This document shows positions 44,968 through 62,352 of a stretch of DNA of 64,000 bases, piece by piece; position 1 is the stretch's first letter; each line of letters starts with the position of its first letter. Position numbers and translations under genes: made by a program. Location: positions 20,698 to 84,697 of IMG/VR virus record IMGVR_UViG_3300020578_005808; one strand, 5' to 3'. A model generated the notes under the pieces. The model ran no database searches. It was not told the DNA's origin and was given only the letters and a program-made list of their open reading frames with translations. This stretch comes from a virus. Taxonomy: Duplodnaviria; Caudoviricetes.

Positions 44968-44968
44968 A

Positions 44969-46837
44969 TTATATTTTCTCTCTTTCAGCTAAGAATTTAA
45001 ATGTTAAATCCGCAACTAAATTATAAGAACTATCAAAATTTAATCTAAAAGACTCTAGAAAATAAGTTAATTCTCCTTTTCTATATTTTACTCCTTGATT
45101 AAAAATTTTACTAAACGTATTAACAGCCAAGGGAGAAGCGCCAAATAAATATCCAGAACTTTTATCTAACATTTCAGTAGTCATTAAGGTTTTAATTTTT
45201 GGAAATACAATCCCTTGATTTTGATTAGCTGACGCACCAGCTCCTGAAAATAAAGTTTCTCTATTTATTTTCATAGCGATAGTAATATTCTTGGTGCCTT
45301 CTGTTAGTTGTCTTGTCTGATAAATGATTTCTTTAAAGTTTGGAACATTGACCGTTGAAAAACGATTCACAGGCATTTGATTCGTTTCGGTAATTATTAG
45401 TTCGCTTACCAAACCTCCTTCTGGTTGAAAAGTTGATGAATCAGAAAAAGATTTCGTATAAGAAATTTCCGCTCCGAATTTAAGATATTGAATTAAACAT
45501 CCAGTTTTTTTGCCTGCGTAGTTAGAACTCCCATCAACCATTTTTTTATAATATGGACTGATTACATTTATATCGGAAACACTTGGAGAATCTATAATGT
45601 TGGTTTTAAAGTCGTTTATTTTATCAAAGCTTTTGTTTTTATTTGTATAATATTTAACAGAACCTTGAATAGCTGCTTGTATTATCCCAACTTGATCTTT
45701 TGTTAAATTAACAACATAAGAATGAATTCTGGTAGAATTAGCAAAAGAAGAATTTGTAGTAAAAACAATTTCATAGCCAACCTCATTTTCAATTCCACTT
45801 AAATCTTTAGTTATCGATATTGGATTAGATTTGAGAGTGTCTAAAACATTATATTTAGGTATGTTATTTGCAAAACTAGGATAGTATGTAGAAAAATAAG
45901 AAGTGAAATAACTGTTACATCTTGTATAAGCAGAAGTTATATTTGATTCTAATTTTGAGATAGCATTTTGCCTAGCTACTTCTCTTGTTGAACCTTTTCC
46001 TTTAACTCTAGCTCTTTCTAAGATTTGTATTGTGCCATCTTCTAAATAAGAAATGTCATAAAGTAAAGTTTCAGAAGTGTTGGCGGAATTATCAGAAAAA
46101 ACAGTATAATTTTTTGAATATTGGAATTGGTAATTTATTAAATCAATTGTTTGATTTACAAGGGAAGATCCGTAATCAGAATTAGATACTTGAAAACTTG
46201 TAGAACTATATAAAGAACGAATACTAGATAAAGAATCTAATCCTTGAGCAAATAATTTATTAGCAATAGTATTAGCAAAAATAACAATTTCAGAAGATGA
46301 AATTTTATCTACATTATCAACTCCAAAAGAAACACTATGAGAAGCAATAAAATTACCCCCATCTTGGAAAGAAAAATTAAAATTTTCTGTGAAATTATTT
46401 AATTTATACCAAGAATCAGTAACAGAAGATATAGAGCTAGGTAAGTTCGCATTAGCATAAGATCCTGTTGAATCATCCTTTAATACTTCCATTGAAATAT
46501 TAAATTTGCTAAATCTTACAGCATTTTCATCAAAAGTAACAGAAGTAGGAAAAGAAAAACTTAAAAAGCGAACTTTTCCATAAGAAAATCCATTAATTTT
46601 TAAATCAACAAATTCTGTAGAATTTTCAAGCAAAGCTTTAACTTGTCTAAAATGTTCAGATACAGGTAAAGACGATTCCCTATTAGAAAAATATCCAACA
46701 ACCGATATGTTTTCTTTTCTTCTGTAATTAAAAGCTCCAGCCTTTTGGTTTTCTAAATTATAATTTAATAATGTTACTACTGCAAAATTAATTGCTGTAG
46801 ATCCAAAAGTTAGCATTGTTTCTGAAGAAAAAGCCAT
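44969..46837 (-). CDS. Putative distal tail protein
   Basis: First gene downstream of the TMP; repeated beta modules (ISVVGY, HSVSFG, ERARVKG, IQGSVKY). Confidence 0.45.
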   Translation of the reverse strand: MAFSSETMLTFGSTAINFAVVTLLNYNLENQKAGAFNYRRKENISVVGYFSNRESSLPVSEHFRQVKALLENSTEFVDLKINGFSYGKVRFLSFSFPTSVTFDENAVRFSKFNISMEVLKDDSTGSYANANLPSSISSVTDSWYKLNNFTENFNFSFQDGGNFIASHSVSFGVDNVDKISSSEIVIFANTIANKLFAQGLDSLSSIRSLYSSTSFQVSNSDYGSSLVNQTIDLINYQFQYSKNYTVFSDNSANTSETLLYDISYLEDGTIQILERARVKGKGSTREVARQNAISKLESNITSAYTRCNSYFTSYFSTYYPSFANNIPKYNVLDTLKSNPISITKDLSGIENEVGYEIVFTTNSSFANSTRIHSYVVNLTKDQVGIIQAAIQGSVKYYTNKNKSFDKINDFKTNIIDSPSVSDINVISPYYKKMVDGSSNYAGKKTGCLIQYLKFGAEISYTKSFSDSSTFQPEGGLVSELIITETNQMPVNRFSTVNVPNFKEIIYQTRQLTEGTKNITIAMKINRETLFSGAGASANQNQGIVFPKIKTLMTTEMLDKSSGYLFGASPLAVNTFSKIFNQGVKYRKGELTYFLESFRLNFDSSYNLVADLTFKFLAEREKI

Positions 46838-46842
46838 AATAA

Positions 46843-49800
46843 TTATACAGATTGTGGACCCATTTTTCTTGCAAATTGAGTTGGGAATTGATCTTGTAAA
46901 AATTCCATTACAGCATAAACTTTGTCCGATGTTGTTTGAATGGTTCTCTGATCATTGATATTTATAACATTAGAATTAGTAACTGAAGAACCAGCTTTTT
47001 CAAAGTAAGGCGCAAGTGCTTTTTGCATAGCTTCTCCAACGGCACCAGCAAACTGTTCTGGTGCAAAGTTAGGAACAAATCCTTTAGAAGCGTATCCTAA
47101 TTGAGCTTGTTGAGCCGGATTTAATATAGCATATTGTTCATTAGAATTTTTGGGTTTTGCTCCAAATAATCCCATTCTATTATAAACTTCAACTGCTGGT
47201 ACTTCTATTTCAGCGCTATTTTTAACAATGTTCTTATAATATTTAGAAGGCTGAGGAGTGGCGTTTCTGTAGCCAGAATAATCAGGACTATTTAGCACAT
47301 CTAATTTTTCTCTTGAAAATGCTGCTGCCATGCTAAAATTAGGAACAAAACCTGAAGATTTATTCTTTTTTCTTTTCCTTAATTCTGCTGGAGATATTTT
47401 TAGTTTTTTAGCTTCGTTAATTTCTGACTGAGTATAGTATACGCCTTGAATAAATTGACCTTCGATTCCAAAATTAGTTGCTGCAGCTTGCTTCCTTTCT
47501 GCTTGAGCTAACTTTGGCATTCCCATTCTTCTGTTTCCAAATTTAATACTTTCTACTGAAACTCCTTTATTATAAGCTTGTTGAATCTGATCGTTAGAAT
47601 AAAAACGGCCATTTATTGTTTGCCCATATGTTTGGGGGTTAATTATATTTTTATCAACAGCAGGTAAAGGAGGCAAACCTAAACCAGCGCGTACAAATCT
47701 ACCAGCCCCTTCCGTTTCAGGAATAATTTTTTCAACTGCGACCCCCCTATTGAATGCTTCTTGTCTTTGGGCTGCAGTTGCTCCCCGTAAACTCTCTGCT
47801 TCTCTAGCTGATCTTTCTCGAAATTCTTTTGTAGCTTCAGCAGTTTCTTGGGCTCTAGCAAATTCAGCTTTGCGTTTATTTAATAATTCTGGCTTTGTAA
47901 CTCCTTCTACATAAAAATCACTTTCTTTAGGATTAATTAATCTACGCTCAGACTCTGCTGTATTTTCTTTTTCTTTTTTATAAGCTTGGTAAGAATCGTA
48001 CAAGTCTTCATTACCTTTAAAATTCTCTCTAGTAAAAGCCCCAAAAATTCTTTCTTGAGATATTAAATAATTAGCCTTATCTCTTGAGGTGAATAATTGA
48101 TTCGTTTCTTCATTTTTAATTACTCCTTCAACTAATTTGCTTCTAGTATCTGATTCTTGTTGACGAAGTTCTTTTTGTTCTTCTGAATTTCTTTGATCGA
48201 TTTTTCTTAGCTCTTCTCGTTTCGCAGCGGCAGCAGCAGCAATTTCAGCTTGCTTAGCTTTTTCTTGTCTAGCAATTTCTTCTTGCTCAGCTCTTTTTCT
48301 TTGCTGTTCTTCGATATCTAATTTATCTTGCTCTAATTGCTCTTCAATTGTTAATTTGCCTGATGAGTTTTTAACAAAATTAGGAATAAATCCTTTAGAC
48401 ATATTTCCTAATCCTGCTTCTTTTTCTTCTAAAAGTTTTCTTTTGTATGCTAAATAAGCTTCTAGAGAAACTTTACCCTCTACGACATCTTGCTTACTAA
48501 TTCCTTCGCCTAAATCAGATTTTTTAGCCCTACGAGCGCGATCTGCCATTGTTGAACCTGCGTAAAGAAATGATTCTCCAAGCATGTTTCCAATGCCTAG
48601 TTTTTCTTCTAAGACATTACCTCCTCTATATCCATAGCTAGCGGCTAAATAAGCTTGACCAACTGGATTAAAAGCAAAAAGAGCGTCGAATCCTAATCCA
48701 GCAACACTTGAAGCAATATCAAAACTATTTCTATATTTTTTCCCAGTAACTGGATCTACCGATTGACGACCTAAAAAGATATCGCTAAAATCTTCTGCTA
48801 TTTGATTATTTTTTGATAACGCGATTTCTGAACCTAAACCCAAAAATGATGCGGCTGGTAAGATTTTACCACCGAGACTCATTCCCTTTTTAGTTAAAGA
48901 AGCAAGTAATAAAGAACCTTCAGCGGCTTTTAAACCAGCTAAGCCATAATTTTTTTCTTGAGCTTGTCTAACTGACTCTCCAATCGCGCCTAAACCACCC
49001 AAGGCAATAAGTGGCTTAGTTATTTTTCCAGCTACTCCAGAAGCAGCTCTAATAAGTTTTCCAGCTTTACCTGATAAAAACTTAGAAACTCCTCCGAAAG
49101 CTTTACCAGATAATTCAGACATTCTAGAGGTAACATTTGAATTTTTTATTCTAGATCCTATGTGTTTTATTGAATTTATTACTGAAGATTCTTTAATATT
49201 GATTTTAGGCGTTCCTATAGGAGATGGAGTTGATCCCGCTGGACTTTGGACGACTGGCAATTGAGGAGGACGAGACGAGAGAGATAAAGGATTTCTTGCG
49301 GGCGACTCAGGTGGAGCTACTCCTTCAGGTTTATTTCCTATAACATTTTTAACTAATTTACTTAAAACACCTTTTCCTATAAATCCGCTAGATCCTTCTG
49401 CATTTGTTGGATTAACTTCAAAAACAATTGTACTTACCCTACCTCTTCCTCCTGAATAAAATTCTTTTGGTTTAACTCCAGCTTCAATCGCAGCTTCTAA
49501 ACTAGTACCCCCAACATCGACACCAAAAAATGCATTTCTAATATTTTTTGTTCTGACTAACTCTCGAATATTTTCAAATGCTGTTGATTCTGCAGTTTTG
49601 CGAAATGATTCAGCCATTTTTACTGCTTGTGATTTTGATAATCCTGCTTTTCTATAGGCTTCAACAGATGGTTGAGAAGTTGGATCAAACCCAGTAGCTT
49701 TTAAAACTGTGCCTCCTTTAATTATTTTAATTTTACCGTCTTTATCTACCGCAACATGAACGCGCAATTCATTATAATAAGTCGGTACTTTATTTTGAAT

Positions 49801-52800
49801 GAAAAATCCGCTTCCAGTTCCTTTATTATATTTTTCTATTATAGATCTAGTATCTTTTGTTGTTAAGGCACCCCCTAATCCATAAACTCCTTTGCTTTGA
49901 TAATTAGCATTACCAAATGCAGTTTTGACAAGAACCGATCTTCCTTCGGAAAGTTCATTTATTTTATCCAATAAATTTTTAGGAGTCAATCGGCCATCTG
50001 ATTTTAATTTAGCTATGATTCGATCTATTTGTTTAGACCTTGCAACAGAAGGTAATTTCAACTCATCTAATTTAGAAACTTTGGGATCTTTTAATGATAA
50101 AATAGATTGACCACTTTGGAAGCCTCCTTTTAAAGTTGCCGTTGAAATCATTTTAGCGTCTTTTGGCAACTTACCTTCTGTAATGCCTCCTTCTTCAACA
50201 GATCCATCAGGATTTACTTTTCTATAAATATCATCTATATTGTCCCAAACATAAAGCTTACCTGCTTTAGCACTTAAAGCAGCTTGTTGAGCCTCATCTT
50301 TTCCAAAGGCCGCATAATTTGGTATAAAACCAGAAGCTTTCGATGCTATTGAATTATTTTCTAAGTTTAATCGACGTAAAACAGAAGATGGATCTTGCTC
50401 TAAAAAAGGATAATTATTTAATTTTTTACCTGTTTTTTTATCTGGATAACGCCAAATTGTTTTATTTTCTTTAAAAAATTTAGGTAAATCCGCTATAGGT
50501 ATTTCTCCTCTTATTGTTACTGGGGCGGTTGTGGCAGAAACCGCGCCCCTAACTGTATTTTTTAATCTACTACCAAAAGATCCGCTTGTTGTATCTTGAT
50601 TACTTATTGCGTATTGAGATCCCGTGGCAATATTTTGAGGAACTGGATCCATTTTCGATTTAAAATAATCAGCCAAACCTCCCTCTCCGGGATGAGGATC
50701 AAAATCCCAACGATCAAAAAACTTAAGCTTACCTCCTTCAAAGGAATATCCATAATTACTCATTACGTCATGTCTTCCTGCTGACGCTCCTTTAACTCCA
50801 CCAGAAGAAACAAAATCTAGTCTCGCTTGAACTGCATTTAAAACAGCTCTCCTAAATAAATTTTTACCTTCGTCTGTGTTTTGATTAAATCCTATTGACT
50901 TGTCTGGATTTTTTACATACCATTTCTGCCAATCTGTTTGAGGCTCTAAACCGAACATCCATCTATAAAGAGGCTCTCTAAATTCAGTTCGACCTTCCGA
51001 GGTGTAAGCTTTTTCCTGATATCTTTTTTGTAAACTTTTAGTTGGTTTATCTAAAACTACAGATGGAATTAGACCAATTTCATCCTGACCCATTTGTCCA
51101 GAAACTAAATCATAACCCTTGGAGGCTAAATCGTAACCCAAAGGAGTAGTTAAATTAGTTAAAAATCGACCAACAGTTTTACTAATCAACGGAATTTTTG
51201 CAGTTCCGGGCTCATAAATTTCTTCTGGTTCATTAGCAAAATTAGGAATAAAACCTTTAGAGGCTAATCCAATACTGGCTAAGCCATTAGGTTCATCTAT
51301 TGTATTTGTTACCGCTAACCCCATAGGGTTACGGCTTGAAATTAATTTTTCACTTTGATTAACTCTTATAGAATTAAATGGAACATATTGACTCTCTCTA
51401 GCTATAGCTTCTCTTAATGGATCGTAAAAACTTGGAATAAATCCACCACTTTTAGTAGTTGGCGCAGCGGCTGGAGGATTAGCTTGCTGAGCGTTCCCCA
51501 AGCCAAGAAAACTCATTACATCATTTATAATAACAGTAGAATTGAAAGCATCAATTTTACCATTAGTAAATTTAAAACTATCTCCCAAAGAACCTCGAAT
51601 TGCGTCGGTAATATTTTTTTGTAAGCTAGCTCTAAATTCTTCGTTTTTACGAGTTTCTGCTTCTACCTTGGGAAGATTTTCGGATTCAAGTTTTCTAAGA
51701 GATCTATCTTCTGCAAATTTAGCTCCTAATGAATCTAAACTATCTTTAACAACATCACCAAAGTATCTAATAGCTTCAGCTGGATCTTCTCCAGTTTGTA
51801 ATTCTGCGCCGACTTGTGTTTCTGCAATATTTCTTAAAGATAAAGTATCTGTTGCTTTAGTTCTTAAAATATTAGCTGTTCCTGCAAGACCTACAGATTG
51901 TAAAACACCTGCATCTCTAAATAAATCCTTTTGTAGGTCTCTTGTCCTAAGGGCTACTAATCTATCTGTGACTGATTTTAAATCAACTGATTTATCAATC
52001 ATTCCGGGATATTTCTCCTGAATAGATTTTAAAAGATTTGTTAGCCCAGAAACCTGAGACCTTTCTGAACCTAGCATTGACCCGAGCCTATATTGAAGAG
52101 CACCAGTTAAAGGAGCATTAATAGAAGCAATTCTTGAGGCTGCGTCTGTAGATGTTTTTATTCCCCCTGCAAAAGATAGTTTTTCTTGTATTTTAAGAAC
52201 TTTTAATTGAACTTCTTTGTTAATTTCTGCAATTTTAGAAATTTGCTCAAGTTGTTTTGTTTGGCGCTCGCTACTAATTGCTAATTCTTCTAAAGAATCT
52301 CTTTGTTTTTCATTGAGATTCTGATCCTTTGCCATTTCTCTAATGAGACTAGTTGTTTCATCAGATGGTTTTTCAATTTTACCTAAAGCTTCAGAAATAT
52401 TTCGTGGTAATTTTAAATCTTTATCTGTTGCTTTTAGATTAAGTAAGTTTTTAAAAGAAGAAGAAACCTCTAATGATTTTTTCATTTTATCGGCTTCTAC
52501 CCCAAAAGAAATTGCAGCTCTTGGTCCGAATTGAGAAGCGAAACTACTTAAATCATTTATTCCTTCTCCTAATGCTTGAGTTCTTACGGATCTTAATTCT
52601 CTAGCTCGATCTATTTCAGCTCTTTGTTTGATTTCGCTTCCCCTGATTTCACTTATTTTTTTATTTGCTTGCTTATTAACTTCTAAAAATTTAATTTCAC
52701 TATCTACAGATTGTAAAAAAAGTGGAAGTAATTTATCTTTAGTTGTTTTGTCAACCGTGTTAAAAAATTCTAGTAGATATTCTAGTTCAGATCCCTGAGC

Positions 52801-55800
52801 TATTTTTTCAAAATTTTCAGGTTTTAAATCTGCAGATGTAAATTTAAATAAATTTTCTCCAGCAGTAGAAATTAAACGTGAAAAAGATTTATTTAATTCT
52901 TCAGGCGTTCTAATTTCTCCTGATTTAAGCGCTACAAGTTCTTCTTTACCGGTTTGTTGTCGAGTAGCTTTTCTACGGGCATCTTCTATAATTTCAATTC
53001 TCTTTTCTAAATTAGGTTCTGAAGCTAATTTAGAGGATAATCCGGGGTTAGTTCTTGATAAATTCCTTACTAGTTCTGATTCTCTTTTTGAAAGTTTGAT
53101 TAATTGTTCTGGTGCTGTTGAGGCGTCTTTAAAAGCGGCATCTAATTTAGATAATGTATCAACTAATTCTTGGGTACCTTCAGTAACAGATTTGAACTCT
53201 CTTGCAGAAGCATCGATTTCTTTTTCTAATTTTCTTCTTTGTATATCTTGAGTAATTTGACCTGATGAAAGAAGATTCAATCCACCTTGAGCTAATCCAA
53301 CACCAATCGGAACACCGGCAGCGACAGCTCTTCTACTAAACGGCTGACCTTTAGATTGTTTTAAACCTCTTCTTGCTCCTAAAATTCCTCCTAATAGTGG
53401 GATTCCAACTTGAAGAGCAGTATTTACTTCTGGGCCGATTCTTTCATTTAAATATAATTCATTTAATATAGAGGTAACGCCTGCAAGACCGAATGTTTGT
53501 AAAAAAAAGCGTATGAAATCTTTTGATGCGCTTTCAGAATCTGGGGAAGCTTCTATAGTTTTTCTTGTAAATCTTCCTCTAGCGTCTCTTGGGAGACTAG
53601 GTCTTGCGAAATTGGGAACAATATCTTTAAGACCATTAGGTTCGTCTCTTTTATTTGTTACGGCAGTTGGATTTCCTTTGCCGTCGAAGTGAGCCATGAT
53701 TTGAGAGGCTGGTAAACCAGTCATCATTTTTTCTCTATTTATGGCATCTGATAAACCAGCAAAATTAGGAATGTATCCATTAGCTCTTGATATAGAAATA
53801 AGACTATCTGGTCCTAACTTAGAAACTCCCATTTCAGCAGCTTTTTTGAAAAAATCTCTTCTAGCTTTTGCTTTTTGTGGTACATTTAATAAAAATTCTA
53901 GATTTTCTAAACTAATCTTATTTGGATTATCATAGAAAAACTTTAAAATTCCTCTATTGAAATTTTGTCCTTTCGCATCTTTAGTACCCATTCTTCCGCC
54001 AATCCAAGTTGCAGCTTGGACACCTAAACCGCTAACACCTGCCCTAGCGCCTACGTTTCTAAAAGCTTGAGAAACCTTGTCATACTGCTCCCTGTTCATG
54101 CTGGGGGCATTTTTTACATTAAATTCTTTATTTAAAGCATCTCCTTGTGCTCTATAATCGACAGTAACATCTTGGCTGCCGAAAGGATCAAGCATGTTAT
54201 TTACGAATGCTTTTCTCTTATTGCCAGTAAGATTTTCTAAACCAACAAGTAGATTTGCAGCTTTAAGTCTATTTGCTCCATATGTTTGAGCTGTAACCGA
54301 TGCTATTTCTCTCTCGTCTAAAAATATTGGAGAGGCTATTGTTGAAAGTTTCTTCTGAGTAAATAGATTATATCTTAAAGCATCCAAAGCATTTCTCTCC
54401 AATGGATTTGCTGGAGAAAGAGCCGACATTACACTTGCAAATTTCTCAGGAGAAGTTCCTGATGCTTTAGAAAATACTTTAATTAAATTGTTATAATCCT
54501 CATAAGCTCTAGCAAAGTATTTTTGATTTTCAGGACTTAATTTTTCAAAGTTTTTTGCTATATTAGCCTCCATCTCTGCGGATGAAATGCTTGGGAATTT
54601 ATATTTATCTTTTTTAGCAAAATTAGGAACATATCCAGAAGCTAAAGGAGATCCTATTATATAATTACCAGTCTTCTTTTTGATATCAAAGTATTTAGAT
54701 ATTTCTTCTAAATATCCAGAAGCTGGCAAATTACGTTGATATCCTTTAGATGTCGGCGCGCCTATTCCAGACTTATTTCCCTCATAAATACCAAAGAAAG
54801 CAGATCCCTTTGGCTTGATTGATTTGCTAATAAATTTCAGCAAATCTTCTCTAGCTGGGCCTTCTTTTATTACATTCAGAACATTAGCTATAGTAGCAGA
54901 ATCTGCTGAACCGAAAAAATCTTTTAATGTTTCTTCGTTGAATTCTTTTGTTCTATTGTATGGATCATAAACTCTAGATTTAATTCTAAATTTTTTTGCT
55001 AGGAAATCAGTCCCTGTGTCATATTTTCCTCCTCCGATATCTATATTGCGAGGCCCTAATTGCCCTCCAAATTTTTTAAATAATCCTGGAACTTGATTTA
55101 ATGATGTTTCTGCGGAAGAAATTTCTTGAGAAAAATTCGGAATATATCCTTTAGACATTCTGGGGATGTCTTTCATTTTTCTATATCTAGGAATTATTGC
55201 AGTTTCTCCAGTTCCAGCGAAATTAGGAATCACGTCTTCTTCGCTGTTGACCATTACTGGTTGAGTTTTTCCTTTAATTGTCGCGTTTATTAATTTCGGA
55301 ACAGGATTTTTAGCTCCAAAATTTTTGGCTTGAGAGACTTCTTCGGCAGCCATCGATGTTGCAAAATTTGGAATATATCCACTTGCAGATCTCCTTGGTC
55401 TTCTAGTAGATCGCGCTGCTGGAAGTTGTGTTATATCCGTATACCCTCTAGTTCTTAAATCCGAAGCTAATACTCTAGATAAAGAAACTTGTCTTTGTAA
55501 TTCTAAATTAATTCTTTTAATTTCTTCAAAGACTTGTTTTCTTGCTCTAGCCTCATTGTACGTTGATGTAGCTGTATCTTTAGTTAATCCAGAAATTCTT
55601 TGCATAACTCCGCTAATTTGAGTCTGCAAGGCTAATCTTTCTCTTTCTTTTTCTCCAAATAGACTACCTCCTGTAACATATCTTCCAAGAGGATCTGTAA
55701 TTTCTTTAGCTTGAGTTTTTAAAGAGGCTCCTATAAACTTTATTAACTTAATTCCTAAGCCAGCCCCAATTGTTGCTAAAACCGGACCACCTGTATATAA

Positions 55801-57078
55801 GAAAAAGTTTCCTAAAGCATTGGAAAGGCCCTTAGTTATTTCTTGACCAGCGCCCTTAGCCATCGCTTGGCCAGCATTGATTCCAGCTTCTTCAAATTTT
55901 TCTGGAGATAATAATTTTAAACCAAATTGAATAGCGCTAGTGCCACCGGTAATTAATGGTCCAAATAAATTTTTACCAAGATCCGAACCTACTTGAGTAG
56001 CTATTGCTGCTGTTTGAGAAATTAAAGCGCTGTAACTTTTATTTAATTGCTCGTTCTTTTTTATTGCTTCATCAGTCGCCGAAATAGAAATCTTTAAAGA
56101 ATTAGAATAAATACTATTTGCGCTAGATAAGTCTCTTATAACAGCTTGTAATTGGTTAATTTGATAAACACCACCAAGTAATTCAGCTGTTCTAGATTTT
56201 TCAGCTTGACTTAAGTTTTTTGTTGCTTCTGAATAATTTTTTAAGATTTGAATACCATTAAGTAAAACTCCATTTTGATCTTCGACTACAACTCCTAATT
56301 GTCTTAATTGATCTAAAATTTCTGGTCTTCTTACTCTTGTAAAAATAGTTTTTAAAGCGTTACCGATAACAGCGCCACCACGACCAGTAATTTGCTGCGC
56401 TGTTGTAATCGTTGCAACTAGCTCGTCAAAAGATAGCCCGCTTTCTTCAGCCGAACTTCCTACGCGGGTTAAGGCTTCGCTAAGCTGAGCTGCACTAACC
56501 GCAAATCTAGAATCAACAGCAATAAGTTTACTTATAATTTCAGTACTACTAAGAGCTTCTTTATTAAATCCGTTAATTGCTGTTGTTATGCTATTAACTG
56601 ACTGAGCGTAATTTAATCCTGAAACCCTTGATAATACAAGAGCATCATTAGTTCTTTTGAGCGTTTCTTCTGTAGATAAGCCTTGCCTCGCAAATTCTTT
56701 AGCTGCTTCAGCGACATCCGAAAAATTAGTGGCAGTGGCTCTTGCTATATTAAATAAACTTTTACCGAATCTGTCTAAATTTTGCTGAGACTCTCCTAAG
56801 AAAGTGTTTAATTCTACTAATTGTTTATTAACTTCAATTGTAGATCTTGCGGCGGCAGAAATTGCTTTATTTACTGCTAAAATACCACCTGTAATCGCTC
56901 CGAATGCTGTAACGCGGGCAGCGGCAGCTTGTAAAGATTTTGAAAATTCCGCAGCGTCACTACTAATTCTTCCTAAAGGTTGAGAAATACCCCTATTGAG
57001 CTTTGATTTAAAAATATCAATGTCTCTATAAGCTCCTGCTGTATTTATCCTAAGATCTGCAACGATTGTAGTAGGCAT
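46843..57078 (-). CDS. Tail tape measure protein (TP901-type core) with embedded enzyme-like cassettes
   Basis: N-terminal core: VAEAAKEFARQGL...SVNSITTAINGF...LSEALTRVGSSAEESGLSFDELVATI...IGNALKTIFTR. Canonical position after the tube and chaperone genes. 3411 aa. Confidence 0.93.
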   Translation of the reverse strand: MPTTIVADLRINTAGAYRDIDIFKSKLNRGISQPLGRISSDAAEFSKSLQAAAARVTAFGAITGGILAVNKAISAAARSTIEVNKQLVELNTFLGESQQNLDRFGKSLFNIARATATNFSDVAEAAKEFARQGLSTEETLKRTNDALVLSRVSGLNYAQSVNSITTAINGFNKEALSSTEIISKLIAVDSRFAVSAAQLSEALTRVGSSAEESGLSFDELVATITTAQQITGRGGAVIGNALKTIFTRVRRPEILDQLRQLGVVVEDQNGVLLNGIQILKNYSEATKNLSQAEKSRTAELLGGVYQINQLQAVIRDLSSANSIYSNSLKISISATDEAIKKNEQLNKSYSALISQTAAIATQVGSDLGKNLFGPLITGGTSAIQFGLKLLSPEKFEEAGINAGQAMAKGAGQEITKGLSNALGNFFLYTGGPVLATIGAGLGIKLIKFIGASLKTQAKEITDPLGRYVTGGSLFGEKERERLALQTQISGVMQRISGLTKDTATSTYNEARARKQVFEEIKRINLELQRQVSLSRVLASDLRTRGYTDITQLPAARSTRRPRRSASGYIPNFATSMAAEEVSQAKNFGAKNPVPKLINATIKGKTQPVMVNSEEDVIPNFAGTGETAIIPRYRKMKDIPRMSKGYIPNFSQEISSAETSLNQVPGLFKKFGGQLGPRNIDIGGGKYDTGTDFLAKKFRIKSRVYDPYNRTKEFNEETLKDFFGSADSATIANVLNVIKEGPAREDLLKFISKSIKPKGSAFFGIYEGNKSGIGAPTSKGYQRNLPASGYLEEISKYFDIKKKTGNYIIGSPLASGYVPNFAKKDKYKFPSISSAEMEANIAKNFEKLSPENQKYFARAYEDYNNLIKVFSKASGTSPEKFASVMSALSPANPLERNALDALRYNLFTQKKLSTIASPIFLDEREIASVTAQTYGANRLKAANLLVGLENLTGNKRKAFVNNMLDPFGSQDVTVDYRAQGDALNKEFNVKNAPSMNREQYDKVSQAFRNVGARAGVSGLGVQAATWIGGRMGTKDAKGQNFNRGILKFFYDNPNKISLENLEFLLNVPQKAKARRDFFKKAAEMGVSKLGPDSLISISRANGYIPNFAGLSDAINREKMMTGLPASQIMAHFDGKGNPTAVTNKRDEPNGLKDIVPNFARPSLPRDARGRFTRKTIEASPDSESASKDFIRFFLQTFGLAGVTSILNELYLNERIGPEVNTALQVGIPLLGGILGARRGLKQSKGQPFSRRAVAAGVPIGVGLAQGGLNLLSSGQITQDIQRRKLEKEIDASAREFKSVTEGTQELVDTLSKLDAAFKDASTAPEQLIKLSKRESELVRNLSRTNPGLSSKLASEPNLEKRIEIIEDARRKATRQQTGKEELVALKSGEIRTPEELNKSFSRLISTAGENLFKFTSADLKPENFEKIAQGSELEYLLEFFNTVDKTTKDKLLPLFLQSVDSEIKFLEVNKQANKKISEIRGSEIKQRAEIDRARELRSVRTQALGEGINDLSSFASQFGPRAAISFGVEADKMKKSLEVSSSFKNLLNLKATDKDLKLPRNISEALGKIEKPSDETTSLIREMAKDQNLNEKQRDSLEELAISSERQTKQLEQISKIAEINKEVQLKVLKIQEKLSFAGGIKTSTDAASRIASINAPLTGALQYRLGSMLGSERSQVSGLTNLLKSIQEKYPGMIDKSVDLKSVTDRLVALRTRDLQKDLFRDAGVLQSVGLAGTANILRTKATDTLSLRNIAETQVGAELQTGEDPAEAIRYFGDVVKDSLDSLGAKFAEDRSLRKLESENLPKVEAETRKNEEFRASLQKNITDAIRGSLGDSFKFTNGKIDAFNSTVIINDVMSFLGLGNAQQANPPAAAPTTKSGGFIPSFYDPLREAIARESQYVPFNSIRVNQSEKLISSRNPMGLAVTNTIDEPNGLASIGLASKGFIPNFANEPEEIYEPGTAKIPLISKTVGRFLTNLTTPLGYDLASKGYDLVSGQMGQDEIGLIPSVVLDKPTKSLQKRYQEKAYTSEGRTEFREPLYRWMFGLEPQTDWQKWYVKNPDKSIGFNQNTDEGKNLFRRAVLNAVQARLDFVSSGGVKGASAGRHDVMSNYGYSFEGGKLKFFDRWDFDPHPGEGGLADYFKSKMDPVPQNIATGSQYAISNQDTTSGSFGSRLKNTVRGAVSATTAPVTIRGEIPIADLPKFFKENKTIWRYPDKKTGKKLNNYPFLEQDPSSVLRRLNLENNSIASKASGFIPNYAAFGKDEAQQAALSAKAGKLYVWDNIDDIYRKVNPDGSVEEGGITEGKLPKDAKMISTATLKGGFQSGQSILSLKDPKVSKLDELKLPSVARSKQIDRIIAKLKSDGRLTPKNLLDKINELSEGRSVLVKTAFGNANYQSKGVYGLGGALTTKDTRSIIEKYNKGTGSGFFIQNKVPTYYNELRVHVAVDKDGKIKIIKGGTVLKATGFDPTSQPSVEAYRKAGLSKSQAVKMAESFRKTAESTAFENIRELVRTKNIRNAFFGVDVGGTSLEAAIEAGVKPKEFYSGGRGRVSTIVFEVNPTNAEGSSGFIGKGVLSKLVKNVIGNKPEGVAPPESPARNPLSLSSRPPQLPVVQSPAGSTPSPIGTPKINIKESSVINSIKHIGSRIKNSNVTSRMSELSGKAFGGVSKFLSGKAGKLIRAASGVAGKITKPLIALGGLGAIGESVRQAQEKNYGLAGLKAAEGSLLLASLTKKGMSLGGKILPAASFLGLGSEIALSKNNQIAEDFSDIFLGRQSVDPVTGKKYRNSFDIASSVAGLGFDALFAFNPVGQAYLAASYGYRGGNVLEEKLGIGNMLGESFLYAGSTMADRARRAKKSDLGEGISKQDVVEGKVSLEAYLAYKRKLLEEKEAGLGNMSKGFIPNFVKNSSGKLTIEEQLEQDKLDIEEQQRKRAEQEEIARQEKAKQAEIAAAAAAKREELRKIDQRNSEEQKELRQQESDTRSKLVEGVIKNEETNQLFTSRDKANYLISQERIFGAFTRENFKGNEDLYDSYQAYKKEKENTAESERRLINPKESDFYVEGVTKPELLNKRKAEFARAQETAEATKEFRERSAREAESLRGATAAQRQEAFNRGVAVEKIIPETEGAGRFVRAGLGLPPLPAVDKNIINPQTYGQTINGRFYSNDQIQQAYNKGVSVESIKFGNRRMGMPKLAQAERKQAAATNFGIEGQFIQGVYYTQSEINEAKKLKISPAELRKRKKNKSSGFVPNFSMAAAFSREKLDVLNSPDYSGYRNATPQPSKYYKNIVKNSAEIEVPAVEVYNRMGLFGAKPKNSNEQYAILNPAQQAQLGYASKGFVPNFAPEQFAGAVGEAMQKALAPYFEKAGSSVTNSNVININDQRTIQTTSDKVYAVMEFLQDQFPTQFARKMGPQSV
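47063..55389 (-). repeat. Dispersed peptide repeat S-x-G-[FY]-[IV]-P-N-[FY], 12 copies (2 partial), inside the TMP
   Basis: Copies at about 55361-55389, 55217-55233 (VIPNFA), 55128-55155, 54617-54642, 53759-53784, 53606-53622 (IVPNFA), 51427-51450 (GFIPSF), 51236-51264, 50312-50337, 48374-48399, 47332-47358 and 47063-47091. The + strand core AAATTAGGAA recurs in several copies. Confidence 0.92.
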
Positions 57079-57100: not shown

Positions 57101-57107
57101 ATTACAC
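57101..57107 (-). promoter_or_regulatory. GTGTAAT candidate late-promoter motif
   Basis: In the short gap 22 nt upstream of the TMP ATG, followed by two AAGG elements. Confidence 0.45.
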
Positions 57108-58099
57108 TATATTCCATGCATTTTGAGGAAATCTTCTTTAGTTAATTTATTTCCTTTTTGTTTGGCTATATCTGATATTGCAATAGCACTTCCTCCAGCC
57201 ATTTTTTGTAATTCTTCGTGAGAGGCTCCAACATGACCTACACCTAAAGATTGTTCGTTTTGATTAACATCTTTTTCAGAAGCGACCATCTCGTACCATT
57301 CGATCATCTTATCAGGATCTTCTGCAACGTCTTCGGGGGGAGAAGACTGAGCCTTATTTTGCATTAAAGACTTAAAATACTTACATTGAGAAAAGAGATT
57401 GCTTTGGAAAATAGTTAAATCTTTAATATATTTACCATAAAAATAAAAAGCATTATCATTACAAAGATAAAATAAATTCATTAAAAAAGGACACGCTGAA
57501 ATTCTTTTAATTTCTGGGATAGAAAATTTTTTATAAAATGTATTTAATTGATGAATTAAGTTTACTAACTCATCATCTTCTAAAGCATTAAACTCGTCTG
57601 CGGAAAAAAATTTTTCTTTCAAATCTTGATCTTTATAAAAAGCTTGGGAGATAAAAAGTTCGTTATAGTTTTTCTCAACATATTCCTCAGCAGTAAAACC
57701 AATAAGTGTATTTTTTTCTCTTTCTATTTCTAAAAGTTTATTTTCTGCTGTTTGTATTTTCTTTTTTGTTTCAGTGATTTGTCTTTTTATGATTAAATTT
57801 TTTAATATTAAGTCAAGATCTGAAACTTCTTTTTTTAATCTTTCTATTTCTACTTCTTTTTCCCTATCCCAAATTTTTTCTTTTAGTAAAAATAAAATTT
57901 TATCTTCCCTTTGCTCCAGTCCTTTACTTAAAGCTTCCTTAAGGTAAATTTGTTTATTTTTAGAAAGAATTCCATTTTCAATTTCTGTAAAATGCTTAAT
58001 GAAAATAGGCTTTCCCGAGTAATTAAACTCAGAAAAGCCTAAACAAATTTCTCCGTATAAATTTTTTAAAAAATCTATTTTAGTCGAAGAATCAGACAC
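57107..58099 (-). CDS. Putative tail assembly chaperone
   Basis: Helical and charged, immediately upstream of the TMP. C-terminal FYGKYIKDLTIFQSNL resembles chaperone tails. Confidence 0.5.
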   Translation of the reverse strand: MSDSSTKIDFLKNLYGEICLGFSEFNYSGKPIFIKHFTEIENGILSKNKQIYLKEALSKGLEQREDKILFLLKEKIWDREKEVEIERLKKEVSDLDLILKNLIIKRQITETKKKIQTAENKLLEIEREKNTLIGFTAEEYVEKNYNELFISQAFYKDQDLKEKFFSADEFNALEDDELVNLIHQLNTFYKKFSIPEIKRISACPFLMNLFYLCNDNAFYFYGKYIKDLTIFQSNLFSQCKYFKSLMQNKAQSSPPEDVAEDPDKMIEWYEMVASEKDVNQNEQSLGVGHVGASHEELQKMAGGSAIAISDIAKQKGNKLTKEDFLKMHGI

Positions 58100-58109
58100 A
58101 ATATATATA

Positions 58110-58823
58110 TCAAGAAACTAACTCTTCCTTACTCACTCCTGAATTTAGCTGACCAATTAAAAAGGCTCCCTTCTCAACAGCGCTAACTAAAAATGAATCT
58201 TCAGAATCTTCTATTTGATTTAATTTTTCTAAACGCTGCTCGAAAGAACCGTCTCCAAAAAGACAAGATTCAGATCCTTCTTCTCCAGAATGCAAAAGAT
58301 GAAGAACATACCATAAATTCAAAAGATCAGAAGCTCTCTTTTCAGCTGTATTATCAAATAAAGAATTTTGAATACTTTCATATTCGTAAATTTTTTGCCT
58401 TAATACCTTATATTCATCATTTATATTAGTAATCTTAAGTTCCTTTTCAGCGTCAGACAGGGCTGTATCTTGCTTAATTTTTTCTGCCTCAACTTCTAAA
58501 AGGATAGCTCTTGAATAATTATCAGAATATTCCTTCTTCTCATCTTCAGATGCGGAAATCCCTTCCTTCTGAAACTTCTTAAGAAGAAAAGCCTTAGTTA
58601 TAAGACCTAATTTAATTCCTTCTGATACTTTTACAGAATAAAAAATTGATGAATCATCTTGTATTTTTCTTGTCGGCTTAAGAATAGCAAATCTTTGAGG
58701 AACATTCTTTTCTATCTCACGGGTAACTTGTATTTCATTACCAGCATCATCTTTTTCTGTTGTTGTTTCTTTTACCTTTTGAGCTTTATCAAGAGAAAAG
58801 GTATGTAGCCATTTTTCTTTCAT
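58110..58823 (-). CDS. Putative tail assembly chaperone
   Basis: Between the tube gene and the TMP; coiled-coil and acidic. Confidence 0.45.
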   Translation of the reverse strand: MKEKWLHTFSLDKAQKVKETTTEKDDAGNEIQVTREIEKNVPQRFAILKPTRKIQDDSSIFYSVKVSEGIKLGLITKAFLLKKFQKEGISASEDEKKEYSDNYSRAILLEVEAEKIKQDTALSDAEKELKITNINDEYKVLRQKIYEYESIQNSLFDNTAEKRASDLLNLWYVLHLLHSGEEGSESCLFGDGSFEQRLEKLNQIEDSEDSFLVSAVEKGAFLIGQLNSGVSKEELVS

Positions 58824-58824
58824 A

Positions 58825-59106
58825 TTATTTTAAAGTAATGTTTATAGACTTAAAAGTAGTATCTATGTTTCTGATCGCGTCATTTCCAGCGTCAAGAATC
58901 TTCTTTCTTATGTAATTATATTTATTAGCATCAAAATAATCAATATTTTTTACAAATTCCCCTGAGGTTTTTTCTTTAACTTTTTCTAATAAAGCTAAAT
59001 GATCTTTGTGTAAATCTTCTACCATTTCAAAATATTTTTTATATAATGAAATAATACCCCGATCCATTTGAAATTTTAAATACTCTTTTAATTTTAAGTC
59101 ATCCAT
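58825..59106 (-). CDS. Hypothetical protein
   Basis: Helical ORF (RKKILDAGND). Likely start is the ATG at 59106, with TATAAT about 10 nt upstream (track gives 59127). Confidence 0.6.
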   Translation of the reverse strand: MDDLKLKEYLKFQMDRGIISLYKKYFEMVEDLHKDHLALLEKVKEKTSGEFVKNIDYFDANKYNYIRKKILDAGNDAIRNIDTTFKSINITLK

Positions 59107-59147
59107 AAGCCTACATATTATAAACAATAATATTAAAAATATAAAAT

Positions 59148-59179
59148 AAAAAACCCCCCGCCTTTCAGCGGAGGGTTTT
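59148..59179 (-). terminator. Rho-independent terminator after the major tail gene
   Basis: Minus strand CCCTCCGCT-GAAA-GGCGGGGGG followed by TTTTTT. Confidence 0.88.
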
Positions 59180-59193
59180 ATTTAACTAATCAC

Positions 59194-60339
59194 TTAAGCG
59201 TGTTTCGTAAAGTGTAGTCCTGAATTTTTACCTATTTGAGCTGAAAATTCTAAGTCTACTGTCTTATTAGGACCGATTGAGGAAGTGATGTTTTGAGAAT
59301 CTAGTTTTGCACCCTTAAGAGTGACGTAAGAAGTCTTAGCTGTACAATTTCCACTAAGATATCCATTTATTGATAGCAAACCAGTGAATTTTGCTGAATC
59401 TCCACAAGCAGTTACGAAGTTGTAAAGCCTTTGAGAAGCAAGTTCTCCAACAATAGCATTTACACTCATGGTGCAATTAATTGGGAATGTAATTTCTCTT
59501 GCGAAAGCAAAAGTTTTACCAAGTTTTCTAATTGGTTCACGATTAATTGTCATTGCAACTGTAACACTTTGTATTTTAAGGTCAGCTTCAGAAAGACCTA
59601 TTACGGGAGCATTATCGGGCTCGGCGGAAGCGCTTGAAGGATCTTTAACTAATGTTAAGGTTATATCTCCGGGTCTAACAGCTGAAACTTCAGAGGCAGC
59701 ATTAAATAATCCGGCTCCTGATGGTAAAGTAACAACTAATCCGGGATCTACGCCATCATTAACGGCAGGATTAGGAACTTGTGAATTACTAATTCCTCCA
59801 GTGAATACTATATTTTGTCCCTCAAGTGCGCAACTTACGGTTGGAATAGCTCCGACAGAAGCTTCTAAAGACCAAGAGGTTAAGAAGCAGTTTCCGATAC
59901 CAATAATGCCATCGTAATTTGCTCCAGCGCCCATTGCTGTAGCTGTTGTATCATTAGCGTCAATGCCGGGATTACTTGTTAAAATATAAACATTCTTTTG
60001 ATCGTAATTTGCTCCGCTAGATATGATGTAATCTAACATGTGATCTGCGGCAGCTGATGTTCCTGTTACAGCGTCAACTCTAAGACCTAAATGGCTTTCG
60101 TTAAAACCAGTAGGTTCGAAATAATAAGACATATCAACTGAGACAGTTGGCTCTTGAATAATCAACCTGTCAATTGCAGCTAGTTCTCCAAATTGGTTAA
60201 TATCTTGGCGTTGGATACTAAAGTTGTAATTGCAGCTTTGAACTCTTCTTAAGCTGTGACTTGCGGCAGTTAACGTGGCCGTTCCTGTGGGTGCAGCAAA
60301 TACTGCATCGCTTTGGTAAATTACTCTATTTCTTGACAT
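59194..60339 (-). CDS. Major tail tube protein
   Basis: RVQSCNYNFSIQRQDINQFG, PTVSVDMSYY, SWSLEASVG...REPIRKLG...REITFP. Has its own terminator and lies upstream of the chaperones and TMP. Confidence 0.8.
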   Translation of the reverse strand: MSRNRVIYQSDAVFAAPTGTATLTAASHSLRRVQSCNYNFSIQRQDINQFGELAAIDRLIIQEPTVSVDMSYYFEPTGFNESHLGLRVDAVTGTSAAADHMLDYIISSGANYDQKNVYILTSNPGIDANDTTATAMGAGANYDGIIGIGNCFLTSWSLEASVGAIPTVSCALEGQNIVFTGGISNSQVPNPAVNDGVDPGLVVTLPSGAGLFNAASEVSAVRPGDITLTLVKDPSSASAEPDNAPVIGLSEADLKIQSVTVAMTINREPIRKLGKTFAFAREITFPINCTMSVNAIVGELASQRLYNFVTACGDSAKFTGLLSINGYLSGNCTAKTSYVTLKGAKLDSQNITSSIGPNKTVDLEFSAQIGKNSGLHFTKHA

Positions 60340-60367
60340 ATATATTCCTTATGTAGTTCTAAGTCTT

Positions 60368-60374
60368 TTTACAC
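60368..60374 (-). promoter_or_regulatory. GTGTAAA candidate late-promoter motif
   Basis: In the intergenic gap 28 nt upstream of the tube-gene ATG, followed by AAGGA. Confidence 0.45.
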
Positions 60375-60410
60375 TCAAAAAGGTGAGATTGGAATTAATT
60401 AAAAAAGTTT

Positions 60411-61259
60411 TTAGTAATCAGAATGGGGATTTCTTACGGCTTCAATATCAAAGTCAACAAAAGCTGAAAAAACATCTGGATTTAGATCTGTGTAGTCATC
60501 GGACATTATTCGTTTTACCTTTGTCGCATTAACATCAGCGATGTAAATAGGTTCCCCTGTAGCAACTCCAGTATAGTTATATTGATAACCTGTATAAGCG
60601 CTCATTGCGTTTAAACGCAAATCATTATTATTTATAGATCTAAAAAAATTATGAGAAGAATCTCTTAAAATTCCACAAGCCGCATCTAACGAAAATTGAG
60701 AATCAGACATTACAATAGTTCTAAAATAAACATTTGTCATATCTACCCCACCAAATGCAAAAGGTTCATTTTTGGAATTAATCATTGTAATAAATACAGC
60801 TGGATACGTTATTTCATTTATGTCAATACCACGGGGGGTTTGTGGGATTCTATTTTTATTTTCAATTTTAGTGTAAAATAAAATTCTATCTTCTGATTTA
60901 TCAGTCAAATAAACATTATAATCTTTAATTGCATAGTCTCCACTTATAGTTCTTCCGGTCTGCTCTGAAGAAAAAATAAGTTGGCCTTCGTAATGATTTA
61001 TTGCTACTAAACCGCTTTGACCGGGAACAATAAATGAGCCATCCAAATATACCCCAGTAAGTTGATTTACTCCAGAAATGGAAGCGTCATTAACGATCTG
61101 CTTGTATGGAGCAGCATATGTACAATATCCTGTATAAATACAAGAAATTGGATAAAATAAAGAACTTACATTTTTATAAGCTTCTCCCCTTTTCGTTATA
61201 GTATGATCTATGTATAACAAAAAGCTACTGGTTAATGTATTTTGATAATTTACTTTCAT
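60411..61259 (-). CDS. Putative tail terminator/completion protein
   Basis: Synteny neck-terminator-tube; YPAVFIT...PFAFGG...SQFSLDAACGILRD. Confidence 0.55.
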   Translation of the reverse strand: MKVNYQNTLTSSFLLYIDHTITKRGEAYKNVSSLFYPISCIYTGYCTYAAPYKQIVNDASISGVNQLTGVYLDGSFIVPGQSGLVAINHYEGQLIFSSEQTGRTISGDYAIKDYNVYLTDKSEDRILFYTKIENKNRIPQTPRGIDINEITYPAVFITMINSKNEPFAFGGVDMTNVYFRTIVMSDSQFSLDAACGILRDSSHNFFRSINNNDLRLNAMSAYTGYQYNYTGVATGEPIYIADVNATKVKRIMSDDYTDLNPDVFSAFVDFDIEAVRNPHSDY

Positions 61260-61909
61260 ATGCCTCTAATTTTATTTATGAACTCTTTCATCATTGCAGA
61301 AACATAAGGAACGGGACGATAAGAACTGAGTTGAGGTCTCTCAACGGAAGGATTTTTTATTGGCCCACTTACTTGAACGCCTCTTCCTGAAACACCTCTT
61401 GGATAATTTGCATATCTATTAAATGCGGAAATACCTTTTTCAATTCCTTTTACCCAATTCCTAGTTGATTCTTCCCTAACTACATCAGCAGAAGTATCAT
61501 CAAAATCATCTAAACTAGCGATAGAAAAAATAACTTTAACATTTTTTGTTTGTCGTCCGGAAGTGAATCTTCCCTTAATGTCTCTAGGGTAATCTTTTTT
61601 GATTGTTATTTCTTTTAAGGCTATTGATTTTTTTAAAACATCATAAGCTCCTTGTATTGGATCTTTTTCTTTAAAAAATCCTATAAAACCAAATAAATCT
61701 CCATACCCGCCGAGAGTGCCTGTTATATTTCCTAATTTTGGATTCGATATTTCTTGAGAAACTTCGTGATTTAAAAAATTATTCAAAAGTTCTTCTTTTT
61801 TCTTTCTAAAATCAGTCTGAACAATCTTTTGAATTTCTTTTTGAGTAGATTGAGCAGCTACAGCTTCTTCAACTAAATCTTGATTAAATTTAAAATTTAC
61901 TACATTCAT
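61256..61909 (-). CDS. Putative neck (HK97 gp10-like) protein
   Basis: Synteny; basic protein with WVKGIEKGISAF and an RDIKGRF motif. Confidence 0.5.
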   Translation of the reverse strand: MNVVNFKFNQDLVEEAVAAQSTQKEIQKIVQTDFRKKKEELLNNFLNHEVSQEISNPKLGNITGTLGGYGDLFGFIGFFKEKDPIQGAYDVLKKSIALKEITIKKDYPRDIKGRFTSGRQTKNVKVIFSIASLDDFDDTSADVVREESTRNWVKGIEKGISAFNRYANYPRGVSGRGVQVSGPIKNPSVERPQLSSYRPVPYVSAMMKEFINKIRGI

Positions 61910-62352
61910 TATCTAGCCCTCTCTAAATAATAAGTGTAGTAGTCTGGACTAATATATCTCCTTAAAGATTCTGAAGTTACGATTTTAAAAAATGCATCGC
62001 TAATAGAAATATTTATAGTAGGACCGTCATTCTCTATAAAATCATAAGCGTCTTGTTTTACCTTAATAGTAACATCACCCTTAGGTATAAAATTTCCTAC
62101 TTCTTTTAAATTATTTTGCTTTTGATCTTTATTAAAATTAACTAATGCTGAAAACACTCCAGTAACAGGAATAAAATTTAAATTTGATAAATCTACTCTT
62201 TCATTATAACCAAATATTTTAGGTTGGTTAATATCAAGAATTTGAATTCTAGCTTCTTTATATATTACAATATCTTGCTTGAATGTATCAAACAAGTCAT
62301 CTAATCCTTTTTTAAAAGATGTTTTTTGCGCGGCTGAAAGTAAAGAAGCCAT
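61909..62352 (-). CDS. Putative head closure/head-tail joining protein
   Basis: 147-aa beta-rich protein first in the neck cluster, ending YYTYYLERAR. Confidence 0.5.
   Translation of the reverse strand: MASLLSAAQKTSFKKGLDDLFDTFKQDIVIYKEARIQILDINQPKIFGYNERVDLSNLNFIPVTGVFSALVNFNKDQKQNNLKEVGNFIPKGDVTIKVKQDAYDFIENDGPTINISISDAFFKIVTSESLRRYISPDYYTYYLERAR

Follow-up and report, generated by a model that had tools for sequence, protein, structure and literature searches.

The tape measure protein (TMP) encoded in the window, a 64,000-nucleotide stretch of a viral record from IMG/VR (IMGVR_UViG_3300020578_005808, positions 20,698 to 84,697; Duplodnaviria, Caudoviricetes), carries a cassette that belongs to Pfam family DUF7178 (PF23802) and is predicted to adopt the helix-hairpin-helix (HhH) fold of the HhH-GPD DNA glycosylases. 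Our best reading is that the cassette represents a phage-specific DUF7178 branch of the HhH-GPD superfamily and forms one motif-delimited unit of the TMP. Taken together, its DUF7178 membership, its predicted fold, its retained Lys and Asp residues and the purifying selection acting on it make it probable that the tail of this phage bears an enzyme that acts on DNA. With moderate confidence, we further propose that this enzyme is a DNA glycosylase/lyase of the bifunctional type that is carried in the virion, delivered with the TMP, and active as infection begins. Neither the fold family nor DUF7178 itself is new, although the latter is catalogued with no function assigned; the novelty lies in its employment as a conserved cassette of a TMP, bounded by motifs.

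The carrier gene was identified by its N-terminal TMP domain (PF10145, PhageMin_Tail, E 8.3e-29), its matches to 13 PHROG tape-measure families (best E 1.1e-51), its great length, and its location within a minus-strand row of large structural open reading frames (ORFs). A first-pass annotation, made from the letters and ORF translations of the window, had placed a cassette resembling DUF7178 at 53785-54616, between two copies of a short motif. The in-frame extent is 53785-54615, or amino acids (aa) 822-1098 of the TMP, so that the lower bound stood while the upper bound was one base too high. The 3411-aa minus-strand ORF contained every peptide quoted in that annotation, and a copy of the motif does flank the cassette on each side (Table 1). 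The family named in that annotation was likewise recovered by Pfam: the cassette matched PF23802 at E 2.5e-21 with 76.9 bits, compared to a gathering score of 27, and aligned with profile positions 9-187 of 193, a sequence match that is far beyond chance. It also matched phrog_3842 (E 3.8e-19).

We used HMMER to search 1.84 billion cluster representatives for homologues, and recovered 168 proteins at E <= 1e-3. Among the matches listed were eight giant proteins (1237-4397 aa) bearing the embedded domain with 43-91% identity, while the 142 other listed matches were 25-42% identical to the cassette and ~140-320 aa in length, except for six multi-domain proteins of 571-1072 aa. Stand-alone family members are ~200 aa long, and an alignment of 124 of them yielded the consensus ALSP.N.W..N / G.K..AF..NI..P....VTVD.HA / QA.TW, in agreement with the motifs listed in the first-pass annotation (ALSP..W..N; G.K...F..N; VT.D.HA; QA.TW). 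Five residues (S, K, F, D and Q) were invariant in 124/124 of these homologues; all five are present in the window copy, and they are retained in each of the nine TMP-embedded copies. Pfam recognized no partner domain in the six other multi-domain proteins or in four shorter ones (288-323 aa), and neither NCBIfam nor PADLOC gave a relevant match when the cassette and two stand-alone homologues were queried. The ESM Atlas returned unnamed viral clusters together with one weak lead (score 0.78), a viral cluster with Ogg-HhH in 17% of its members. Two GenBank annotators have labeled homologues as 'N-glycosylase/DNA lyase'.

An AlphaFold2 model of the cassette, built on the DUF7178 family alignment, had a mean predicted local distance difference test score (pLDDT) of 84.7 and a predicted template modeling score (pTM) of 0.82. 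The model was all-helical, and its core (segment aa 12-209) was mostly above pLDDT 90. The top seven matches of this model in the PDB, as identified by Foldseek, were AGOG and Ogg2 8-oxoguanine (8-oxoG) glycosylases (probability 0.92-0.99), with E-values that were weak (0.07-0.4). A search of 48,161 chains that was independent of Foldseek placed the Ogg2 protein TM1821 first (Z 9.9), and each of its top 20 matches possessed the HhH-GPD fold (OGG1, MagIII, MutY, AGOG, ROS1, EndoIII, Mag1, MIG, NTHL1), two of them being queuine-salvage DUF2419 entries (7u07 and 7ugk, Z 6.5). In a second-look alignment, SsOgg and DNA-bound MjOgg scored Z 10.2 and TM1821 scored Z 10.1, over 170-174 residues with a root-mean-square deviation of 3.8-4.0, followed by EndoIII-DNA complexes (Z 8.3-8.5) and OGG1 (Z 7.5); 50 of the 50 listed rows, ranging from Z 10.2 to 6.2, were HhH-GPD enzymes. 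Although a Z of ~10 does not by itself settle the assignment of an all-helical fold, we regard the modeled HhH-GPD glycosylase fold as secure because the list of matches is uniform and the coverage of the ~205-residue domain is nearly complete. These matches provide support for the likeness to HhH-GPD enzymes that the first-pass annotation had put forward.

A Lys in the hairpin, together with an Asp ~20 residues later at the N-terminus of a helix, is the hallmark of bifunctional HhH-GPD glycosylase/lyases, in which these residues are established as K120 and D138 of EndoIII and K249 and D268 of OGG1; the hairpin Lys (EndoIII K120, OGG1 K249) attacks C1' of the DNA-bound sugar. The model of the cassette contains a comparable arrangement, in which helix 113-123 is followed by a loop, helix 132-142, a second loop (DPFGSQDVTV) and then D153, directly ahead of helix 154-161. 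The combination by which HhH-GPD proteins are recognized, namely an HhH element followed by a Gly/Pro-containing loop and, where the next helix starts, a conserved Asp, is thus present in the predicted structure, with the invariant Lys of the G-x-K motif located in the first turn of helix 132-142.

Links at the level of sequence were found for the family rather than for the cassette on its own, which gave no phmmer match to PDB sequences at E <= 10. The best matches of the family profile to PDB sequences were MjOgg (E 0.012) and Pa-AGOG (E 0.18), with VTVD.H aligned to IDRH in both. Comparison of the DUF7178 profile with an Ogg2 profile (36 sequences) using hhalign returned a probability of 92.9% and an E of 3.8e-7 over 70 columns only, all of them C-terminal, in which the invariant Lys falls one column after Ogg2 K128 and the invariant Asp falls on the invariant catalytic D146 of Ogg2 (D147 of MjOgg). 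The Asp of the 'V-D' pair, to which the first-pass annotation had ascribed a catalytic role, is therefore aligned with a catalytic residue. Ogg-HhH and AGOG were also the most frequent, albeit weak, secondary Pfam matches among 125 family members; Ogg-HhH (PF22175) was matched weakly by 5/125 (best E 0.0094), and PF00730 was absent from the 25 families listed for these members. The first-pass annotation overlooked the invariant hairpin Lys which, judging from the alignment, points to the bifunctional glycosylase/lyase type.

Of the known glycosylases, Ogg2 (MjOgg 3KNT/3FHF, SsOgg 3FHG, TM1821 3N0U; PF22175) is the best structural match, and resembles the cassette in its size, in having no iron-sulfur (Fe-S) cluster, in its catalytic Asp, and in a Lys contained within a G-x-K hairpin (G-Y-K in Ogg2). 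In contrast, the 2 are just 7-15% identical, and F25, E39, F42, C43, R115 and other Ogg2 invariants have no aligned counterpart in the cassette. We did not file the cassette as Ogg2, since it lacks a PF22175 match and those of other family members are weak. Likewise, specificity for 8-oxoG is not to be assumed, since most Ogg2-invariant residues have no aligned counterpart. EndoIII/Nth (HhH-GPD, PF00730) shares with the cassette a two-lobe helical fold and an HhH element, and the Lys-Asp spacing is 18 residues in the Escherichia coli enzyme (K120/D138) compared to 20 in the cassette. Unlike EndoIII, the cassette has neither the Fe-S cluster loop nor a PF00730 match, and its hairpin is degenerate, with one Gly rather than the canonical G-h-G.

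We next asked how the cassette has evolved relative to the rest of the TMP. It is the best-conserved part of the related TMPs, with 82-91% identity compared to 40-67% in the N-terminal core. Measured against two relatives for which DNA sequence was available, the ratio of nonsynonymous to synonymous divergence (dN/dS) was 0.044-0.050 for the cassette core, at a dS of 0.78-0.83, compared to 0.15-0.43 for the TMP core, at a dS of 1.4-1.7 that is saturated; that of the helical extension downstream of the cassette core was 0.13-0.16. Based on these contrasts in dN/dS and identity, the cassette is under strong purifying selection. The dS of the cassette (~0.8) was also lower than that of its flanks (1.3-1.7, saturated), a difference for which more recent exchange among TMPs is one possible cause.

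In a quick maximum-likelihood tree, the eight TMP copies formed one group (Shimodaira-Hasegawa-like approximate likelihood ratio test, SH-aLRT, 100) that was nested among the stand-alone proteins on a stem branch of 0.92, a topology that fits a single capture into a TMP and change afterwards. Several of these changes affect residues conserved among the stand-alone proteins, in which W37 is present in 113/124, W72 in 112/124, H155 in 109/124 and W207 in 72/124; the first three are near-invariant in the family and lie outside the curated Pfam definition. In the TMP clade, W37 is replaced by A, W72 by L, H155 by R (F in one copy) and W207 by G. Loss from the TMP copies of the His of VD.H and of three conserved Trp residues was missed in the first-pass annotation. 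We are inclined to read these substitutions as a shift in the substrate pocket or in partners rather than as decay. Compared to the stand-alone PF23802/phrog_3842 proteins, with which it has in common a full-length hidden Markov model match and the five invariant residues, the window copy therefore differs in being embedded in a TMP, in its membership of a separate clade with a long stem, in its A, L, R and G for the W, W, H and W of the family, and in its extension of ~70 aa. The latter (NRGILKF.Y.NP.K..L.NL.FLL...) was modeled at pLDDT 50-73 with no clear structural match (best Z 4.3), and may serve as an adaptor in packing or release.

The leading end of podovirus genomes contains a number of small genes, and stand-alone DUF7178 genes are among them. 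The DUF7178 gene is gene 3 of Lentibacter phage ICBM2, at 1.16 kb and just past the terminal repeat, gene 5 of S-CBP2, at 2.1 kb, and gp9 of cyanophage 9515-10a, upstream of the RNA polymerase gene. By analogy to T7, genes at the leading end would be the first DNA to enter the cell and to be expressed. The same fold was also observed in large multi-domain phage proteins (BFVD; UniProt labels ART-PolyVal-like, large polyvalent protein associated, GNAT, SleB and helicase).

These findings can be accommodated in the following model, for which we infer catalysis, DNA as the substrate, cytoplasmic delivery and cleavage at the motif. The TMP would be assembled into the tail, with three copies of the domain per virion if it resembles the TMP trimers of T5 and 80-alpha. 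Upon infection, the TMP would be expelled ahead of the DNA and the cassette would reach the cell with the leading DNA end, either whole or excised at the flanking G[FY][IV]PN[FY] motifs. The HhH element would grip the DNA backbone, a base would be flipped into the cleft, and D974 and K954 would cut the N-glycosidic bond, probably followed by nicking of the strand via a Schiff base. Stand-alone members would perform the same job as immediate-early gene products, with the TMP version representing a pre-made copy that needs no expression. The target may be (a) a host-specific or defense-imposed base modification, in which case the cassette would serve in an attack on host DNA or in counter-defense, or (b) lesions in the incoming phage genome, which would be repaired on entry. 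The first-pass annotation had likewise suggested, as a possibility, that an injected cassette could excise modified bases from host or competitor DNA or protect the phage genome. A broader proposal, which we offer tentatively and hold to be possible rather than probable, is that DUF7178 constitutes an unrecognized class of immediate-early phage DNA glycosylase/lyases that one large marine phage lineage moved into its TMP, and that these enzymes are offensive or counter-defensive, excising a host-specific or defense-imposed modification.

Several observations weigh against the view that the cassette is a delivered glycosylase/lyase. Among these are the weak Foldseek E-values, the Z-scores of ~10, the limited extent of the hhalign match with its shifted Lys, and the degenerate hairpin discussed above. 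In addition, the window copy failed to match PF00730 (Pfam, E <= 1), PF22175 or PF09171 (Pfam), and substitution of the conserved Trp and His residues in the TMP clade could mean that activity was altered or lost. Three copies of a folded ~200-aa domain would be difficult to accommodate in the lumen of the tail tube, and we know of no TMP insert for which passage into the cytoplasm has been shown. Finally, a literature search found no paper on DUF7178 or on the measured activity of any DUF7178 protein.

Of the alternatives, the one that survives best, although we consider it unlikely, is that the cassette is a non-catalytic DNA-binding or structural module that pilots or holds the leading DNA end, protects this end against exonucleases, or contributes nothing more than bulk to the TMP. 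HhH elements bind DNA irrespective of sequence, and the TMP clade has both lost the His of VD.H with three Trp residues and gained the ~70-aa extension. Moreover, the C-terminus of the T5 TMP is at the tail tip (PMC10038345), and for this reason the N-terminal part of the TMP is expected to be nearest the DNA end. Against a structural role, none of the nine TMP copies has lost K954 or D974, even where identity falls to 43%, and dN/dS is ~0.05. Judging by the position of their genes, stand-alone members are early cytoplasmic products as opposed to virion parts, suggesting that the ancestral role was not that of a tail-bound pilot.

Next in order, and similarly improbable, is a catalytic cassette whose substrate is not DNA. 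It would cleave the N-glycosidic bond of a free nucleotide-type molecule, as Qng1/DUF2419 does with queuosine 5'-monophosphate; a host immune signal, a compound derived from NAD (nicotinamide adenine dinucleotide) and the modified nucleotide pool are conceivable substrates. The DUF2419/Qng1 structures 7u07 and 7ugk were among the structural matches, and their Z of 6.5 was clearly below that of Ogg2 (10.2) and of EndoIII-DNA complexes (8.5). Remodeling of aromatic pocket residues in the TMP clade is consistent with a different substrate, and early or virion-delivered timing would suit the counter-signaling enzymes that have been proposed for polyvalent proteins (PMC7824862). However, the invariant hairpin Lys is a mark of DNA glycosylase/lyases, and the links detected at the sequence level reach Ogg2 and AGOG only.

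We view as least likely of these alternatives that the cassette never acts in the cytoplasm, and is instead trimmed during tail assembly or kept in the periplasm or tail for reasons of assembly or tail length. Globular inserts fit poorly within a tail tube, and proteolysis of the TMP accompanies tail morphogenesis in both T5 and lambda (PMC10038345), the T5 cut falling after NSFVPR, a sequence with partial likeness to the SGFVPNFA boundary motif. A mere spacer, however, would be expected neither to retain a Lys and an Asp of the glycosylase type nor to display a dN/dS three to nine times below that of the TMP core, and the presence of other enzyme types (ART-PolyVal) in adjacent slots is a pattern of delivered effectors. 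Also against this alternative, the cleaved C-terminal fragment of the T5 TMP in fact remains in the tail (PMC10038345). The enzyme usually found in TMPs, a peptidoglycan hydrolase of the lysozyme/SLT type, was rejected, as no such fold was among the structural matches listed.

The proposal that the cassette is a delivered unit draws attention to the motif that bounds it. A regular expression scan for S-x-G-[FY]-[IV]-P-N-[FY]-[AS] identified about 10-12 copies in the TMP. Under a strict definition (G[YF][IV]P[NS][FY], preceded by [AS]-[GSK] and followed by A or S), ~10 copies between aa 567 and 3338 split the TMP into units. The consensus of 62 copies from 10 related TMPs, two of them from IMG/VR contigs (L009 and L010), was [AS]-x-G-[YF]-[IV]-P-N-F-[AS]. 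A motif copy ended 9-10 residues ahead of the DUF7178 core in 7/10 of these TMPs, and the spacing from the core to the next motif was 61-73 aa in 10/10. L009 and L010 are uncultured viral genomes of ~128 kb, with TMPs of 2755 and 3469 aa and a cassette that is 88% identical.

The slot just upstream of the cassette is variable, differing in contents and length between TMPs. In the window TMP it is occupied by an insert resembling a methyltransferase (MTase), for which no counterpart was found in the eight related TMPs. In contrast, the corresponding slot of P0005 (L007:1487-8971 (+)), directly upstream of its DUF7178 domain, contains an ART-PolyVal domain (PF18760, E 6.7e-25, aa 877-1037), indicating that the cassettes are exchangeable. 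DUF7178 is the sole effector-type domain that Pfam recognized in the window TMP. A steady pairing of DUF7178 with an MTase was considered, given the insert in the window TMP and a DNA MTase gene located two genes from the DUF7178 gene of phage 9515-10a, but was not supported: the MTase-like cassette is present in 0/8 relatives, and there is no annotated MTase near the S-CBP2, ICBM2 and S-CRES3 genes. Following the cassette region, Gly/Ala-rich hydrophobic stretches of the glycine-zipper type occur at aa 1180-1290 (window ~53400-53650, minus strand) and aa 2690-2860, and are likely membrane-inserting parts of the TMP. P0005 displayed a weak Gly-zipper_Omp match.

Table 1. Features of the TMP gene and its DUF7178 cassette, as window positions.
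Feature	Positions	Strand	Basis
TMP gene, 3411 aa, single uninterrupted ORF, carrier of the cassette	46843..57078	-	ORF, PF10145 and PHROG matches
N-terminal PhageMin_Tail (TMP core) domain, aa 113-301	56176..56742	-	Pfam; common to all eight giant relatives
MTase-like insert, 165 aa, aa 650-814	54637..55131	-	Weak Pfam match, Methyltransf_12 E 0.072
Upstream boundary motif GYVPNF, aa 815-820	54619..54636	-	Regular expression scan
DUF7178 core, aa 830-1026, predicted all-helical HhH-GPD-like fold	54001..54591	-	Pfam, AlphaFold2 model, structural matches, dN/dS
HhH-like element, segment aa 113-142 (helix, loop LENLTGN, helix with K954 at its start)	54190..54279	-	Model secondary structure; consensus L.G.K..AF..NI
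K954 (segment K133), invariant Lys of G-x-K, candidate Schiff-base nucleophile	54217..54219	-	124/124 homologues; codon verified
D974 (segment D153), invariant Asp of VTVD, candidate catalytic Asp	54157..54159	-	124/124 homologues; codon verified; aligned with Ogg2 D146
Helical extension, ~70 aa, aa 1027-1100	53779..54000	-	TMP-embedded copies only, conserved in all nine; absent from stand-alone homologues
Downstream boundary motif GYIPNF, aa 1101-1106	53761..53778	-	Regular expression scan

TMPs are regarded as proteins that set tail length and form a channel, to which no more than a cell-wall enzyme may be joined. The presence of a conserved domain of the DNA-repair type within a TMP suggests that tails of the siphophage type may deliver enzymes that act on DNA before the genome itself arrives, in parallel with the Dar proteins of phage P1 and with polyvalent proteins, which are thought to be so delivered. 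It also suggests a function, open to testing, for a Pfam domain that had none assigned and that often occurs among the earliest genes of marine cyanophages and roseophages. Were a modified base the substrate, the cassette would represent a phage counterpart to bacterial anti-phage DNA glycosylases. If an immediate-early glycosylase was indeed moved into the TMP, the enzyme would arrive before any phage gene is expressed, and host DNA could be nicked or a mark stripped from the incoming genome. The TMP itself would then act as a multi-effector injection vehicle, with exchangeable cassettes that are released at a repeated motif.

Polyvalent proteins, which have been described as injected along with DNA (Iyer et al. 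2017, PMC5512222), offer one comparison. Like them, the window TMP may string together, in one giant polypeptide, unrelated enzyme-like domains that would reach the host along with the DNA, and their defining ART-PolyVal domain lies beside DUF7178 in the close relative P0005. Unlike them, the carrier here is a TMP, a short repeated motif separates the units, and no MPTase peptidase domain was found. Neither TMPs nor glycosylases are mentioned by Iyer et al. (2017, PMC5512222). The T5 TMP, pb2, offers a second comparison in that its enzymatic domain is set off by a proteolytic cut, located after R1127 (PMC10038345). The local sequence at this site is NSFVPR followed by AEGG, with the cut between them, and since its likeness to SGFVPNFA is partial, we advance cleavage at the motif as a hypothesis only. 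In contrast to the window TMP, with its many motif copies and a DNA-enzyme-like domain in its N-terminal third, pb2 has one cut and one C-terminal cell-wall (muralytic) enzyme.

The window has a GC content of 31%. One strand encodes a replication module (UvsX-like recombinase, DnaB-like helicase, primase and DNA polymerase), and the structural genes are on the other. For 9/10 of the structural proteins flanking the TMP (57107-62352 and 43135-46837, both minus strand), no PHROG match was detected at E <= 1e-3, and a 6.9-kb structural stretch had no DNA-level match among phage records; judging from these searches, the tail module of this phage lineage appears to be essentially undescribed. The row of tail genes also contains a second giant ORF of 3233 aa (22689-32390, minus strand), which is adjoined by ORFs of 904-1162 aa.

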